Shown: positions 31,971-36,228 of the stretch, one piece after another
Numbering within the stretch: position 1 is the first letter of the stretch
How the letters are laid out: each line of letters begins with the position of its first letter
Assembly: GCA_018304425.1 (NCBI GenBank)
Contig: JAGVWE010000003.1
Coordinates: 138,413-202,412 of the forward strand
Source: Candidatus Iainarchaeum sp.
GTDB lineage: Archaea > Iainarchaeota > Iainarchaeia > Iainarchaeales > UBA10219
Direction of reading: 5' to 3'
DNA: 64,000 nucleotides
Position numbers and translations under genes: made by a program
The notes under the pieces: generated by a model
What the model was told of the DNA's origin: nothing
Databases searched by the model: none
Seen by the model: only the letters and a program-made list of their open reading frames with translations

Positions 31971-32152
31971 GCCCAGGCCAACGAAGAGAGGCCTACCGCC
32001 CCATTGAACCCTGCGGGTGAAATGGGGCACGTCCGCAAGTGCCAGTTGACCAGGGCAGTGTCCTGCAAGGCAGGACACGTTTCCCCGAAGACACAGTCTT
32101 CGGGGCCTCGTCCCCAAGGGGACAAGGTCGCAGGCCTTTTGTAAAAAGGCCT
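31971..32152 (+). ncRNA. Putative structured RNA or hairpin cluster forming the tRNA-Val leader
   Basis: Six consecutive hairpins between TATA tttaaaa (~31940) and the tRNA. Confidence 0.4.
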
Positions 32153-32306: not shown

Positions 32307-32771
32307 ATGAAGAAGGGAACGCCTGGATGGAATCCCCTGCAGAAGGGAAGGCGAACACCCAAGAGGAAACTGCGCCTGCTCGCGGCGAAGCGGCACGCGC
32401 CTCCCGCTGACGTAGTCGCGCGGATGTCCCCAGAGAAACAGTTGGCGTTCGCGGCCAGGGAACTACACATTTTCCACCAGGTGCCAAGGTTCCTGAGGGA
32501 AGCGATCTGCCGGCAGGTATTCGAGTACATGACGGATGAAGTGGCGCGGCTCAGCCGGGCGCGGATGCGGTTGGGCACGCGGCTGAGGCAGACCCGCGGG
32601 TCAGCCAAGGCAGTGGCACGCGCAAAAACCAAACTGGATGAATTGGATGCGGAAATCGGCTGGCTTGAAAAAATCCGGGATGAACCGTCCGAGCAATGGA
32701 TAGAGGCCGAGAACTGGATCCGGGCGAAGCGCAGGGAACTCCTCAGGCAGGGCATCCTGAAAAAGGGGTAA
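32307..32771 (+). CDS. Arg/Lys-rich orphan protein
   Basis: Starts MKKGTPGWNPLQKGRRTPKRKLR. TATA ttttat ~25 nt upstream. Confidence 0.65.
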   Translation: MKKGTPGWNPLQKGRRTPKRKLRLLAAKRHAPPADVVARMSPEKQLAFAARELHIFHQVPRFLREAICRQVFEYMTDEVARLSRARMRLGTRLRQTRGSAKAVARAKTKLDELDAEIGWLEKIRDEPSEQWIEAENWIRAKRRELLRQGILKKG

Positions 32772-32828
32772 GGCTGCCTGGGCCAGGCGAACCGTTTTAA
32801 GACCTTGGATGCAAGTGGAGTGGGAAAC

Positions 32829-33500
32829 ATGCTCGAATCCCTGCCAAGCCTTTCATTCGCCTTCCTGGCCCTCGCGTTGGGCTTCAAGCACAGCTATGAC
32901 GCTGACCACATCGTGGCCGTTGCCAACCTCCTCCGAAAGTCGAAGTCGTTGCGGGAAGCCCTGGGCATGAGCGTCAGTTGGAGCCTGGGCCACATGCTCA
33001 CGGCTTCCGGCATCACCGCGTTCCTCTACGTGTTCCGGGAATCCGTGCTCCGCTTGCTGCTCGAAAAATTCGAGTTGCTGGTGGCCGTGATGCTGATTGG
33101 CCTGGGCCTCTACAGCCTCTACGACTTGACGCGGTTCCACCGGCACGAGCACGAAGGCGAAAGCGGAAAGCACGCGCACCTCCACGTGCACGCGAAGAAC
33201 GAGCAAGGCAGGCACCTGCACCAGCACATGTTCGGCATCGGCATCGTGCACGGCCTCGCCAGCAACGACGAACTCCTCATCCTCTTGACGGCCTCGCTGG
33301 GCCTGAACTCCCTGGCCGGGATGCTGGCCGGAACCGCCTTGTTCAGCGTTGGAGTGGTTGCGGGCATGATGGTGTTTGCCGTGGTTTTCACGTACCCCTT
33401 GTTCCGCGCGCACTCCGACAAGCTCTACGCCGCGTTCACGGTGTTGGTAGCCCTGGCCAGCATAGCCTATGGCTGGTTGATGCTGCGCGGGCTGGCCTGA
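32829..33500 (+). CDS. Nickel/cobalt transporter (NiCoT/UreH-like)
   Basis: GFKHSYDADH, WSLGH, His-rich loop, GIVHGLAS. Confidence 0.9.
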   Translation: MLESLPSLSFAFLALALGFKHSYDADHIVAVANLLRKSKSLREALGMSVSWSLGHMLTASGITAFLYVFRESVLRLLLEKFELLVAVMLIGLGLYSLYDLTRFHRHEHEGESGKHAHLHVHAKNEQGRHLHQHMFGIGIVHGLASNDELLILLTASLGLNSLAGMLAGTALFSVGVVAGMMVFAVVFTYPLFRAHSDKLYAAFTVLVALASIAYGWLMLRGLA

Positions 33501-33543
33501 ACCGGGCGGGCAAAACCTTAATAACCCGTTAAGCCAATAATCT

Positions 33544-33632
33544 GCTGAGGGGCGACCCGGAAAAGGCGGCGCTAATTTCAAGCTCCCCAAGATTGAAATG
33601 CCGCGCAATAAGAAGGGCACGCGCTCCTTAGC
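33544..33632 (+). ncRNA. Unrecognised structured RNA motif, copy 1 (5' leader of the YncE-like gene)
   Basis: Four nested stems with compensatory changes relative to copy 2. Starts ~20 nt after TATA cttaataa. Confidence 0.7.
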
Positions 33633-33654
33633 CACTTATTTGAGGCGCTCGGAC

Positions 33655-34728
33655 ATGAAGCTACCCCTTGCCACAGGCGTTTTGCTGCTTGTTTTGCTGC
33701 TGGGATGCACGAGCCCGCCAAAAACGGGGCCGGAGCGCGCGGTCTATGTCGCCAACGAAAAAGGCGCCAGTCTCTCGGTCGTTGATGCGGCAACCAACAA
33801 AGTCGTGGAAACGATTGCATTGGGCGGCCACCCGCACAACGTCAACGTGAGCGCCGACGGGAAATACTTCTTCGCCACCAACCACTCCGAAGACGAGGAA
33901 GAAGAAGCGGGGAAAAAGGAGGAAACAGAGCACGACGACCACCATGCCGGTGGCGAAAGCTTTGTCCGCATCCTGGACGCGCGAACGTTGCAACTCGTGA
34001 ACTCGATTGCGCTGGAACAATTCGGCGCCCACGTCGTGCCAAGCCACGATGGCAGGAGCCTGTTCGCCTCTGACCAGGGCGCGGACTTCCTGGAAGTCCT
34101 TGACCTGGAGGAAGGCACCAGGCTGTCGCGCATCAAGACCGGGCATGGGCCGCACGGCTTCGTGGTGAGCCCGAACGACCAATTCGTTTACACGCCCAAC
34201 GTGGCAAGCAACGACATAACGGTCATCGACGTTGCGGCGCAAGAAGCGATTGGGACCATTGTCCCGGAATACGGCGGACACGCCTGCGAAAAACCCGTGG
34301 CCATGGGCATTGACACAGGAGGCCGTTATGGTGTTGTTACTTGCGGCGGCAGCTTCGACGCCTACAAGATAGATTTCGCGGAAAAGAAAGCCGTAGGCCG
34401 CGTGGAGTTCAGGAAAGGGGAATACCCAGGCCCCATCCAAACACCCTTACACCCCGACGGAAAAACCCTCTACATCCCGGACATGCGGAACGGCGTGGTG
34501 CACAAGGTTGACTTCGAGTCCTTCAAGCTGTTGAAAGATATCCCTGTAGGAAAGGGCGCGCACGGCATCGCCTTCAGCGCCGACGGGAAAACGGCTTACA
34601 TCACCCTGACCTGGGAGAACGCCCTGGCCGTCCTTGACCTGGCTACGGAGCAGGTCAGGGCCCGCATCCCGGTGGGCGAGGAACCCAACGGCGTGGCCGT
34701 GCGGGGCGGAAAGAACCAGGGATGGTAG
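33655..34728 (+). CDS. YncE/YVTN-type beta-propeller lipoprotein
   Basis: LLGC lipobox, VYVAN, PH.V..S.DG blade repeats, His/acidic insert EHDDHH. Confidence 0.9.
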   Translation: MKLPLATGVLLLVLLLGCTSPPKTGPERAVYVANEKGASLSVVDAATNKVVETIALGGHPHNVNVSADGKYFFATNHSEDEEEEAGKKEETEHDDHHAGGESFVRILDARTLQLVNSIALEQFGAHVVPSHDGRSLFASDQGADFLEVLDLEEGTRLSRIKTGHGPHGFVVSPNDQFVYTPNVASNDITVIDVAAQEAIGTIVPEYGGHACEKPVAMGIDTGGRYGVVTCGGSFDAYKIDFAEKKAVGRVEFRKGEYPGPIQTPLHPDGKTLYIPDMRNGVVHKVDFESFKLLKDIPVGKGAHGIAFSADGKTAYITLTWENALAVLDLATEQVRARIPVGEEPNGVAVRGGKNQGW

Positions 34729-34730
34729 CG

Positions 34731-35069
34731 TCAAATGGATTGGACCGGGGGCGTTGTGCCGAAGAAGAAGGCAGCCGCTCCAACCAAAGCAAACAGGACT
34801 CCCATTCCCAGGAACACCCAGAAAAACAGGCTGCCGCCTCCAAGGAACGCCTCGACTGGTTGGGCTTCATATGGATTCCCTGGGTTGACTTTTACCGCCA
34901 ACGTTGAACCCGGTGAGTGTTCGTCCGCATAGCGTTGGGCGGCACCGTAATCGCCAGAACCGGGGGACGTGTAAGCGTTCGTGTATTCTTTTCCCTGATA
35001 AGTGAATTTGTATTTCAGGATGCTGCCCCACGCGATGCCGGTGTCCTTGACCCAGCCAAGCCAGCCCAA
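34731..35069 (-). pseudogene. 5'-truncated DUF3592-like paralog
   Basis: Aligns to the C-terminal ~100 aa of 35301-35813 (DYGAAQRY.DEH, VKVNP). Lacks the first TM. Confidence 0.65.
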
Positions 35070-35130
35070 GCCCCAGAAAGCCTTAATAAGCAGTTAGCGC
35101 CTATAATGTGATTGAAAGTGGTTGGAAAAA

Positions 35131-35216
35131 TAAGGAGCCACCTGGAAAAAGCGGTCCTCTTTCAAGCTCCCCAAGATTGAATCAAACCGCATAATAAGCA
35201 AGGCAACGGCTCCTTA
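35131..35216 (+). ncRNA. Unrecognised structured RNA motif, copy 2 (stand-alone)
   Basis: TAAGGAGCC/GGCTCCTTA closing stem and identical TTCAAGCTCCCCAAGATTGAA apex. Confidence 0.7.
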
Positions 35217-35300
35217 CAATCCATTCGCCAGCTAGTTCTTCGAATACGGTTTCAAGGCAGCCAGCAGGCGACAAAAAAGGGGTTAACCTCCCTGCAGGGG

Positions 35301-35813
35301 TTAAAGGTTTTGGCCGGCAGCCGGGGCCACGCCCAGGAATAATACCGCTGCGCCAATCAAGGCAAACCCGATGCCCATGCCGAGGAAAATCATCATAGCC
35401 AACCCCATTCCGCCCAGCAAGGCATCCGCGGGATGGGAGTCATAGGGGTCGGCCGGGTTGACTTTCACTTGAATCGGGGTTCCCGAAAGGTGCTCGTCCG
35501 TGTACCGCTGCGCGGCCCCATAGTCGCTGGAACTCGGTGAATTGAAAGCATTCGTGTAGTCTTTGCCCTCGAACGTGAAAGAATACTTGAGCGTGTTGCC
35601 CCAGGTGACGCTCGAGCCACTGCGCCCCGTGGAACGGTCCTCGAACACGCTGGACTCCACGACCCTGGCATCTATGGAAACCCAGGGCGTGGTCTGCTCC
35701 TTGTACAAGAAGTAACCGCCTAGGCCGGCAAAAACGAGGCCCACCACCAAGAAAAGGGCTCCAACCAGTTTCGGGTTATTGGTTTGATACGAATACAATT
35801 GCATGCAAGGCAA
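35301..35813 (-). CDS. DUF3592-like membrane protein
   Basis: TM, beta domain (W...ARVVESSV...YSFTFEGKDY...VKVNPADP), TM. Confidence 0.8.
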   Translation of the reverse strand: MPCMQLYSYQTNNPKLVGALFLVVGLVFAGLGGYFLYKEQTTPWVSIDARVVESSVFEDRSTGRSGSSVTWGNTLKYSFTFEGKDYTNAFNSPSSSDYGAAQRYTDEHLSGTPIQVKVNPADPYDSHPADALLGGMGLAMMIFLGMGIGFALIGAAVLFLGVAPAAGQNL

Positions 35814-35883
35814 TAGAAGACCATGGACCTATTTAAAGGTTCCTCCAATGGCAGCTGAGAGTGCACGGGGCAGACCTTTTTAC

Positions 35884-36050
35884 AACCATCAAAAGCTTCG
35901 CTTTTGGTGGCGTCGTCCACGAAGTGGACAACGAAGCCCTGGGAAAACGTCCCCTGCGCGGCAGGGGGCTGGCTTGGCCTATCGGCCTCGCTATTTATGG
36001 CCCACCATCAAAACCTTCGGTTTTGGTGGCCTCGTCCACGAAGTGGACAA
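35884..36050. repeat. Two ~48-bp REP-like double-hairpin repeats
   Basis: accatcaaaaScttcgSttttggtggcStcgtccacgaagtggacaa at ~35885 and ~36004. Confidence 0.8.
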
Positions 36051-36103
36051 GGTCTTTAGATGGGCCGACGTATAGCGCGCAGCCGCCGCTATCGTGCGGC
36101 TAA

Positions 36104-36187
36104 TGCACGGGGCAGGATTCGAACCTGCGCACGCACTGAGCGACCGGGTTCTAAGCCCGGCGGATTTGGCCGCTTTCCTACCCGTGC
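36104..36187 (-). tRNA. tRNA-Leu (UAG)
   Basis: Acceptor GCACGGG/CCCGTGC+A, anticodon arm CCGGG-CTTAGAA-CCCGG, long variable arm, T arm GCAGG-TTCGAAT-CCTGC. Confidence 0.92.
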
Positions 36188-36228
36188 AGCAAGAGGATGG
36201 CTCAGGCTTATTTAAGGCGAGCCTGAAT

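Follow-up and report, generated by a model that had tools for sequence, protein, structure and literature searches.

Two segments of about 90 nucleotides (nt) in a stretch of the genome of Candidatus Iainarchaeum sp. (assembly GCA_018304425.1, contig JAGVWE010000003.1, positions 138,413 to 202,412) can be drawn as one and the same RNA hairpin. The first lies between the gene of a nickel/cobalt-type transporter and that of a YncE-like lipoprotein, and the second stands alone. What kind of element are they? The whole stretch of 64,000 nt is referred to below as the window. A preliminary description, made from the letters of the window, had proposed a candidate riboswitch or small RNA (sRNA). The repeated, structured RNA on the + strand proved to be real; the evidence leans towards an sRNA, and a riboswitch is less likely. 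The analysis shows repetition, a shared fold, compensatory change, conservation above that of neighbouring coding DNA and membership in no catalogued family. The explanation favoured here, tentatively and at a little less than an even chance, is a lineage-specific gene for a structured non-coding RNA of ~90 nt, present in two paralogous copies, of which copy 1 also forms the leader of the YncE-like gene.

Both copies were found at the coordinates first proposed. Over an alignment of about 180 columns, which takes in the promoter-like box as well as the motif, the column identity between them is 79%. When copy 1 was compared by BLAST with its own genome, copy 2 was recovered at E 2.8e-11, and all other matches were no better than E ~1. 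The copy number in the 1.48-Mb genome is two, and the copies lie 1.6 kb apart. The 21-mer TTCAAGCTCCCCAAGATTGAA, which forms the apical hairpin, occurs twice in the window (33577-33597 and 35161-35181) and in none of 100 shuffles of it. A miniature inverted-repeat transposable element (MITE), a possibility raised in the preliminary description, or another mobile repeat was rejected on the grounds that the genome holds two copies only and that blastn searches of plasmid and phage collections gave no match.

Folding of each copy singly gave the same four-helix hairpin (P1-P4) on the + strand, which agrees with the single fold drawn at the outset. The RNAalifold consensus structure of the two copies contains 26 pairs and returned the same list of changes as before, namely three double compensatory changes (G-C/C-G, C-G/U-A and C-G/U-A) and two G.U/A-U swaps. 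All 24 comparable pairs are canonical in both copies. Differences between them number 8 among the 48 paired nucleotides and 9 among the 36 unpaired nucleotides that align. When eight random substitutions were placed in paired positions by simulation, every pair stayed intact in ~1.5e-4 of the trials. The assignment of function to the + strand was likewise borne out, because the G.U pairs are strand-specific and the fold of copy 1 has a z-score of -2.12 on the + strand versus -0.19, level with shuffles, on the - strand.

Contigs of four public sequencing runs (X10, X12, X14 and X15) were compared at the locus. Where X10 and X12 cover the stretch, which they do in part and with copy 2 included, they are 100% identical to it, and X14 covers only part of the YncE-like gene; variation came from X15 only, a relative (~90% identical) found in one groundwater run, which does not cover copy 2. 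Across 33455-33894 this relative carries 45 differences in 440 nt, only three of them inside the motif (33544, 33545 and 33599). The RNA core (33546-33632) has 1 change in 87 nt, versus 44 in 353 on the rest of the contig (Fisher p 3.7e-4), and the block made of promoter, RNA and Shine-Dalgarno sequence (SD; 33505-33648) has 4 changes in 144 (p 1e-4). The RNA is better conserved than the flanking protein-coding DNA, and its core is under purifying selection. The T>G change at 33599 destroys the sole upstream in-frame ATG (33598); thus the motif is non-coding and the start of the YncE-like gene is at 33655.

A more distant relative was obtained from metagenome contigs. Covariance models (CMs) were built from two sequences (R1) and from three (R2). 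The 17-mer core was present in 110 stretches of metagenome contigs, of which 80 were scored with R1 and the other 30 with R2, and one true homolog emerged. It lies on contig L092 (1986-2073, - strand), matches over its full length with 75.9 bits, and folds on its own into the architecture of the window copies. Nucleotide identity of the cores is 78% between the two window copies, and the L092 core is 86% identical to that of copy 1 and 83% to that of copy 2. In the three-sequence alignment 89.7% of the cells are paired, a share that drops to 27-46% if pairing partners are shifted by 1-3 columns. Pair 9-85 reads A-U, G.U and G-C across the three sequences, pair 28-60 reads C-G, U-A and U.G, and pair 12-82 occurs as G-C and C-G. 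From the comparison with L092, the conserved architecture comprises a 6-bp core of P1, a P2 of 2-3 bp, a P3 of 5-6 bp, and the invariant P4 with its loop. The remark in the preliminary description that the loop GCTCC repeats the 3' strand of P1 holds in both window copies but fails in L092, where that strand reads CGCCCC.

These comparisons bear on the simplest alternative, that the copies are a functionless duplicated intergenic segment whose structure and compensation arose by chance in a GC-rich genome. Two copies per genome, a very narrow distribution, weak covariation statistics on three sequences and a fold z-score of -0.71 for L092 would all suit such an origin. It is nevertheless quite improbable, given that all eight stem substitutions between the copies keep pairing at the simulated frequency stated above, that the RNA of the X15 relative is conserved far above the coding sequence around it, and that a homolog with the same fold exists in an organism whose proteins on the L092 contig are only 26-35% identical to their best matches in the host genome. 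A further possibility is that selection acts on DNA: the imperfect palindrome TTTCAA-N11-TTGAAA would serve as the operator of a dimeric regulator or within a bidirectional promoter, and the RNA fold would be a by-product. The invariant core is indeed an inverted repeat, and copy 2 lies within a divergent promoter region. But the half-sites are not enriched at this spacing, TTCAA-N11-TTGAA having six matches in the genome, two of the six being the motif, versus 0-9 for spacings of N7 to N15; moreover, the compensatory changes of P1-P3 lie far outside any operator and the G.U pairs are specific to one strand. A DNA-level element is therefore the least probable of the alternatives, and very improbable in itself.

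The RNA does not belong to a catalogued family. A cmscan of the whole window against Rfam 15 at gathering thresholds returned only three tRNAs, and a permissive scan of 33400-35400 (E<=10) gave three rows at chance level, the best with 18.8 bits against a gathering score of 55.8. This upholds the earlier statement that the motif could not be matched to the NiCo, yybP-ykoY, fluoride, cobalamin or TPP consensus structures. A full-text literature search gave nothing specific to the motif among the listings and the abstract openings. The family is new to Rfam 15, while its kind, the small structured regulatory RNA, is already known.

Its known distribution is very narrow. R1 found no match in 60 genomes of the same order, and R2 none in 150. 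The collection holds 215 species genomes of the host phylum (0.3-1.5 Mb), so that the 214 other genomes of the class are the entire phylum minus the host; in these, the 21-mer core with up to three mismatches occurred 14 times, and no occurrence was confirmed by CM with filters off (best 16.6 bits). Among species-representative genomes the exact 17-mer core was found in 68 stretches, all bacterial, close to a chance expectation of about 69 by our own estimate, and none gave a full CM match (best 18.6 bits). One stretch of the viral contigs has the core and is not a match to the motif. The NicO orthologs of three other families (50-55% identity) are followed by the next gene at 9-28 nt, with no such RNA. 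With four sequences in all, the motif is judged from these searches to be lineage-specific.

How the copies are transcribed was approached through their flanks. The box CCTTAATAA, which resembles a B recognition element followed by a TATA box (BRE/TATA), lies 20 nt before P1 of copy 1, and tRNA-Leu (36103-36188, - strand) has a box of the same type, CCTTAAATAAGCC, 20 nt upstream of its mature 5' end. In L092 the box reads CCATTAATAA at nearly the same distance from the motif. All three aligned loci retain a promoter-like box, and among them is copy 2, which is not preceded by a + strand gene. The word CCTTAATAA occurs 15 times in the genome versus ~4 expected (own composition estimate), and at 9 of its 13 other occurrences an open reading frame (ORF) of at least 60 amino acids (aa) starts 20-69 nt downstream. 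Because the box spacing matches that of tRNA-Leu and the box word precedes ORFs, transcription of copy 1 is predicted to start near 33546-33549, at the foot of P1. The TATA-like boxes reported upstream of copy 2 were also recognized, two in number; relative to copy 1 a 19-nt insertion (35111-35129) follows them, and the second box, TATAAT, restores the spacing. The first may also serve the divergent DUF3592 gene. Judged from these boxes, each copy probably has its own promoter. As to the 3' end, TTATTT behind copy 1 may be a partial archaeal termination signal, and L092 has TTTTT at the equivalent place, 8 nt after P1. Read on the - strand, a T6 run (35269-35274) ends the upstream DUF3592 paralog short of copy 2.

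The same flanks could be read in another way. The motif might be a 3' untranslated element of the NicO-type mRNA that stabilizes or processes its 3' end, perhaps with release of a small RNA derived from this end: in copy 1, X15 and L092 it lies ~45-60 nt past the NicO stop codon, and the first T-rich tract after that stop sits just behind it. Copy 2, by contrast, has no + strand gene upstream, the YncE-like gene ending ~400 nt away with a - strand gene between, and it nonetheless retains both the fold and the promoter-like box; in addition, the distance from box to P1 is that of a tRNA promoter. An origin as a 3' element is accordingly thought improbable. The coordinates of the features are collected in Table 1.

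Table 1. Features of the two RNA loci and of the adjoining genes (positions in the window).
Feature	Positions	Strand	Remarks
NicO-superfamily (Ni/Co-type) membrane transporter	32829..33500	+	HSYDADH motif, His-rich loop
CCTTAATAA BRE/TATA-like box, presumed promoter of copy 1	33516..33524	+	spacing as before tRNA-Leu; kept in copy 2 and L092
RNA motif copy 1	33544..33632	+	minimum free energy -34.6 kcal/mol, z -2.12; CM score 108-109 bits
Copy 1 P1	33544-33554/33622-33632	+	consensus structure (RNAalifold)
Copy 1 P2	33556-33558/33615-33617	+	consensus structure (RNAalifold)
Copy 1 P3	33566-33570/33600-33604	+	consensus structure (RNAalifold)
Copy 1 P4	33577-33581/33593-33597 plus 33583-33584/33590-33591	+	consensus structure (RNAalifold)
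Copy 1 apical loop CCCCA	33585-33589	+	consensus structure (RNAalifold)
Invariant apical hairpin TTCAAGCTCCCCAAGATTGAA (P4 and C-rich loop)	33577..33597	+	same sequence in both window copies, L092 and the X15 relative
TTATTT, T-rich tract	33636..33641	+	4 nt past P1, before the SD; direct reading
SD GAGG (33642-33645) and ATG start (33655-33657) of the YncE-like gene	33642..33657	+	
YncE/YVTN-type beta-propeller lipoprotein	33655..34728	+	lipobox LLGC, acidic/His-rich insert; copy 1 is its putative 5' leader
Two TATA-like boxes before copy 2: CCTTAATAA (35081-35089) and TATAAT (35102-35107)	35081..35107	+	
RNA motif copy 2	35131..35216	+	minimum free energy -24.5 kcal/mol, z -3.00; CM score 96-98 bits

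The genes around copy 1 give the locus its metal-related setting. A Ni/Co transporter directly upstream, and a TATA box and the SD/ATG of a His-rich YncE-like lipoprotein on either side of the motif, had been described for copy 1, and this context was found as described. The NicO-like protein (231 aa) scores 27.5 bits with Pfam NicO, just below the cut-off of 27.7; its start was set by inspection at ATG 32829, the listed ORF opening at TTG 32805. The YncE-like protein matches Pfam YNCE (1.4e-18) and the NCBIfam YVTN repeat (8.1e-33), and has a weak, sub-threshold match to the zinc chaperone AztD (1.2e-10). The same NicO-like gene end precedes the motif in copy 1, L092 and X15. The L092 locus is without the YncE-like gene, and a search of the phylum's 214 other genomes detected no ortholog of it at E<=1e-25; on account of these two absences, the gene looks like a later arrival behind an existing RNA gene.

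A gene follows the motif at only two of the four loci, copy 1 and X15. No + strand ORF of at least 40 aa starts after copy 2 and before 35563, in keeping with the earlier remark that copy 2 has no ORF downstream, and the 231-nt spacer in which copy 2 sits separates two DUF3592 paralogs, both encoded on the - strand, opposite to copy 2. In L092 the motif and its TTTTT are followed by a convergent gene of Lrp/AsnC type, and there is no room for a regulated gene.

This distribution bears on the riboswitch alternative. Here the motif would be a sensing leader whose internal loop between P2 and P3 (GGAAAAR/AAUAAG) binds a metal or small ligand and controls read-through into, or translation of, the YncE-like gene; the orphan copies would be relics or trans-acting RNAs derived from a riboswitch. 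Copy 1 fills the interval from promoter box to SD/ATG, an arrangement that X15 keeps, and the aptamer-like fold is separated from the SD by a T-rich tract. The neighbours are metal-related (the NicO-type protein with its His-rich loop, and the beta-propeller with its acidic/His-rich insert and weak AztD-like match), and the unpaired bases of the internal loop are conserved in all sequences. Against this, two of four loci have no downstream gene on the strand concerned, the most invariant element is the terminal hairpin and not a junction, the motif matches none of the NiCo, yybP-ykoY, fluoride, cobalamin, TPP or other Rfam models, and the NicO orthologs of three other families are followed directly by the next gene without the RNA. 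An expression platform is also not apparent, because the motif keeps its fold when the transcript is extended and the SD takes part in no more than a weak stem of 3-4 bp; the extended folds showed no competing pairing that would clearly mask the SD or act as a switch. A riboswitch is therefore considered unlikely. Slightly less likely still is a combined form, a new class of ligand- or metal-sensing RNA that would act both as the leader of an extracytoplasmic metal-binding lipoprotein and as a free sRNA from the orphan copies. The sRNA gene is preferred over the riboswitch because a gene lies downstream at only half of the loci, no platform is convincing, and the apical hairpin is the most conserved part.

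Possible partners of that hairpin were sought among mRNAs. Genome-wide, complements of the apical loop occur at 183 sites, a noisy result. Among the start regions of five neighbouring genes, the best was that of the DUF3592 gene starting at 35069 (-18.6 kcal/mol, top 0.9% of random windows). As an uncontrolled sighting, many intergenic runs of TTGGGGGGTT type were seen near TATA-like boxes (for example at C1:164608, C1:451770, C4:151338 and C7:55340). The lack of a convincing mRNA target would also be expected if the RNA were a decoy or scaffold, its hairpin and A-rich internal loop being recognized by a protein with no mRNA pairing involved. Consistent with this, a segment of 21-22 nt is fully invariant in all four sequences at paired and unpaired bases alike, while the other stems vary. 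On the other side, no candidate partner protein co-occurs with the motif, and inspection of the loops revealed no kink-turn (K-turn) or other known protein-binding motif. The present data do not separate protein binding from base pairing; as an account of the motif by itself, a protein-binding decoy appears improbable.

In the sRNA-gene reading, each copy would be transcribed on the + strand from its own BRE/TATA box, starting at the foot of P1, and the RNA would fold into a four-helix rod capped by the invariant hairpin that presents the CCCCA loop. It would act in its own right, in trans, through this hairpin, most likely by pairing of the C-rich loop with G-rich, Shine-Dalgarno-like segments of mRNAs, or else by binding a protein. 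At locus 1, partial read-through of TTATTT could make the RNA double as the 5' leader of the YncE-like mRNA, and this would tie the recently acquired gene to the promoter of the RNA. The position behind a NicO-type transporter suggests, as an association only, a role in metal homeostasis.

Several observations weigh against this assignment. The known family consists of three alignable sequences and one near-identical variant. Covariation among homologs, which had been put forward as a check, is present, but it rests on these three aligned sequences plus the variant, and is only modestly above chance: in column-shuffle controls, double-change pairs numbered 4 versus 2.8 (114 of 500 shuffles as high), the covariation score was 0.192 versus 0.118 (32 of 500), and the fraction of paired cells was equalled in 11 of 500. 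The pairing tests were run on the same sequences that yielded the structure. In L092 the five outer pairs of P1 are unformed and one of the three P2 pairs is broken, and its fold (z -0.71) is no better than that of shuffles. Behind copy 2 the first run of at least four T is met only at about 35313 (~95 nt on), which leaves its 3' end undefined. The best of the target sites in neighbouring genes is not significant after five tests. No RNA run is listed among the public holders of the window DNA, and both the NicO neighbourhood and the leader position at locus 1 fit cis-regulation equally well.

The remaining features of the neighbourhood concern the genes on either side. The DUF3592 paralogs stand in tandem (34731-35069 and 35301-35813, both on the - strand) and share 56% identity across 98 aa. 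Compared with its partner, the downstream paralog is shorter by ~57 residues at the N-terminus, where the partner has its first hydrophobic segment, and the TTG listed as its start lies right against the promoter-like box of copy 2. The idea that RNA and gene were duplicated in tandem as one unit was rejected: the paralogs are 56% identical as proteins versus 78% for the RNA cores as nucleotides, so one recent duplication cannot explain both. On L092, the convergent gene (934-1911, +) encodes a 325-aa protein with two Lrp/AsnC-type halves, which shows a weak, sub-threshold likeness to metal-related regulators of the ChrS, ArsR and AdcR types. Upstream of the NicO-like gene and directly after tRNA-Val lies ORF154 (32307-32771, +), encoding a very basic, probably coiled-coil protein of 154 aa with no Pfam or NCBIfam match. 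By inspection, ORF154 and the NicO-like gene have TATA-like boxes ~27 nt before their ATGs, and both look leaderless; for this reason a structured leader of 110 nt is unusual in this stretch.

A second, unrelated repeat family was also noticed. Its members, of ~60-80 nt, consist of two hairpins and number at least seven in the genome. They fall into two sequence variants, whose first hairpins are wholly different in sequence and still form hairpins. Three copies lie in the window (32085-32152, 35872-35935 and 35990-36060) and others at C1:289567, C1:292523, C3:220885 and C3:229183. Copies adjoin tRNA-Val and tRNA-Leu and bracket the block ORF154-NicO-RNA-YncE-DUF3592-RNA-DUF3592. The element may be MITE-like, a tRNA-flank element or an island border. 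The gene block itself (32307-35813) looks patchy across the phylum; of the 214 other genomes, only 4 have a match to the NicO-like gene at E<=1e-10. This patchy distribution, shared by the YncE-like gene, suggests a locally acquired metal-related island.

The host genome (1.48 Mb in seven contigs, 92.6% complete, G+C ~58.6%) is archaeal by its small-subunit rRNA, which scores 1327 bits with the archaeal model versus 1023 bits with the bacterial one. It is the sole representative of its family and genus among the genomes of the collection, and the public runs that hold window DNA are labelled as groundwater or soil metagenomes.

To our knowledge, uncultivated archaea with small genomes have yielded very few described regulatory RNAs, and riboswitches are rare across archaea. 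The candidate is compact, with a defined fold, a likely promoter, a conserved hairpin and adjoining genes of metal homeostasis. If it were a true ligand- or metal-sensing RNA, it would count among the rare riboswitches of archaea and be linked to Ni/Co-type transport in a DPANN-like archaeon with a small genome. As a true sensor or regulator of metal uptake or efflux, it would show how regulation is achieved in reduced genomes without many protein factors; as a lineage-restricted sRNA only, it would be a modest addition to the catalogue.

Among known systems, the archaeal H/ACA guide RNAs resemble the motif in being a single long hairpin with a large internal loop between lower and upper stems, and an ACA follows the lower stem in copy 2 and L092 (two of three sequences). 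Unlike them, copy 1 has no ACA, and the upper stem of the motif shows neither a recognizable K-turn nor a K-loop. Bipartite complements of the internal loop, by a strict pattern, number 18 genome-wide, with none in the 16S (C4:122630-124079) or 23S rRNA (C4:124697-127647). An H/ACA guide RNA was rejected for want of a K-turn, of rRNA complementarity and of a match to any Rfam H/ACA model. K-turn, loop E, tetraloop-receptor and C/D-box readings were also tried, by inspection only, and none fits.

With the NiCo riboswitch (czcD motif) and other bacterial metal riboswitches the motif shares its nature as a structured RNA of ~90 nt beside Ni/Co-type transporter genes, its place in a 5' leader at one locus, and conserved purines in the internal loop. 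The NiCo riboswitch folds into a four-way junction, whereas the motif is a single rod-like hairpin that matches neither the NiCo model nor other Rfam models. It also differs in lying downstream of the transporter gene, in having no regulated gene at half of its loci, and in its archaeal host.

A further comparison is with trans-acting sRNAs whose C-rich apical loops pair with G-rich ribosome-binding sites, such as the UCCC loops of staphylococcal RsaE/RNAIII type; archaeal sRNAs are known from Methanosarcina and Haloferax. The motif has no sequence or model similarity to described sRNA families in Rfam, its host is an uncultivated archaeon with a small genome, and one of its copies is fused to an mRNA as a leader. 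Like these sRNAs, it would be a short stand-alone gene with a putative promoter of its own and, in L092, a T-run. The 3' end of the host 16S rRNA reads ...CACCUCCU, and the hairpin of the motif presents an invariant CUCCCCA loop that is complementary to sequences of the GGGGAG/GGAG type.

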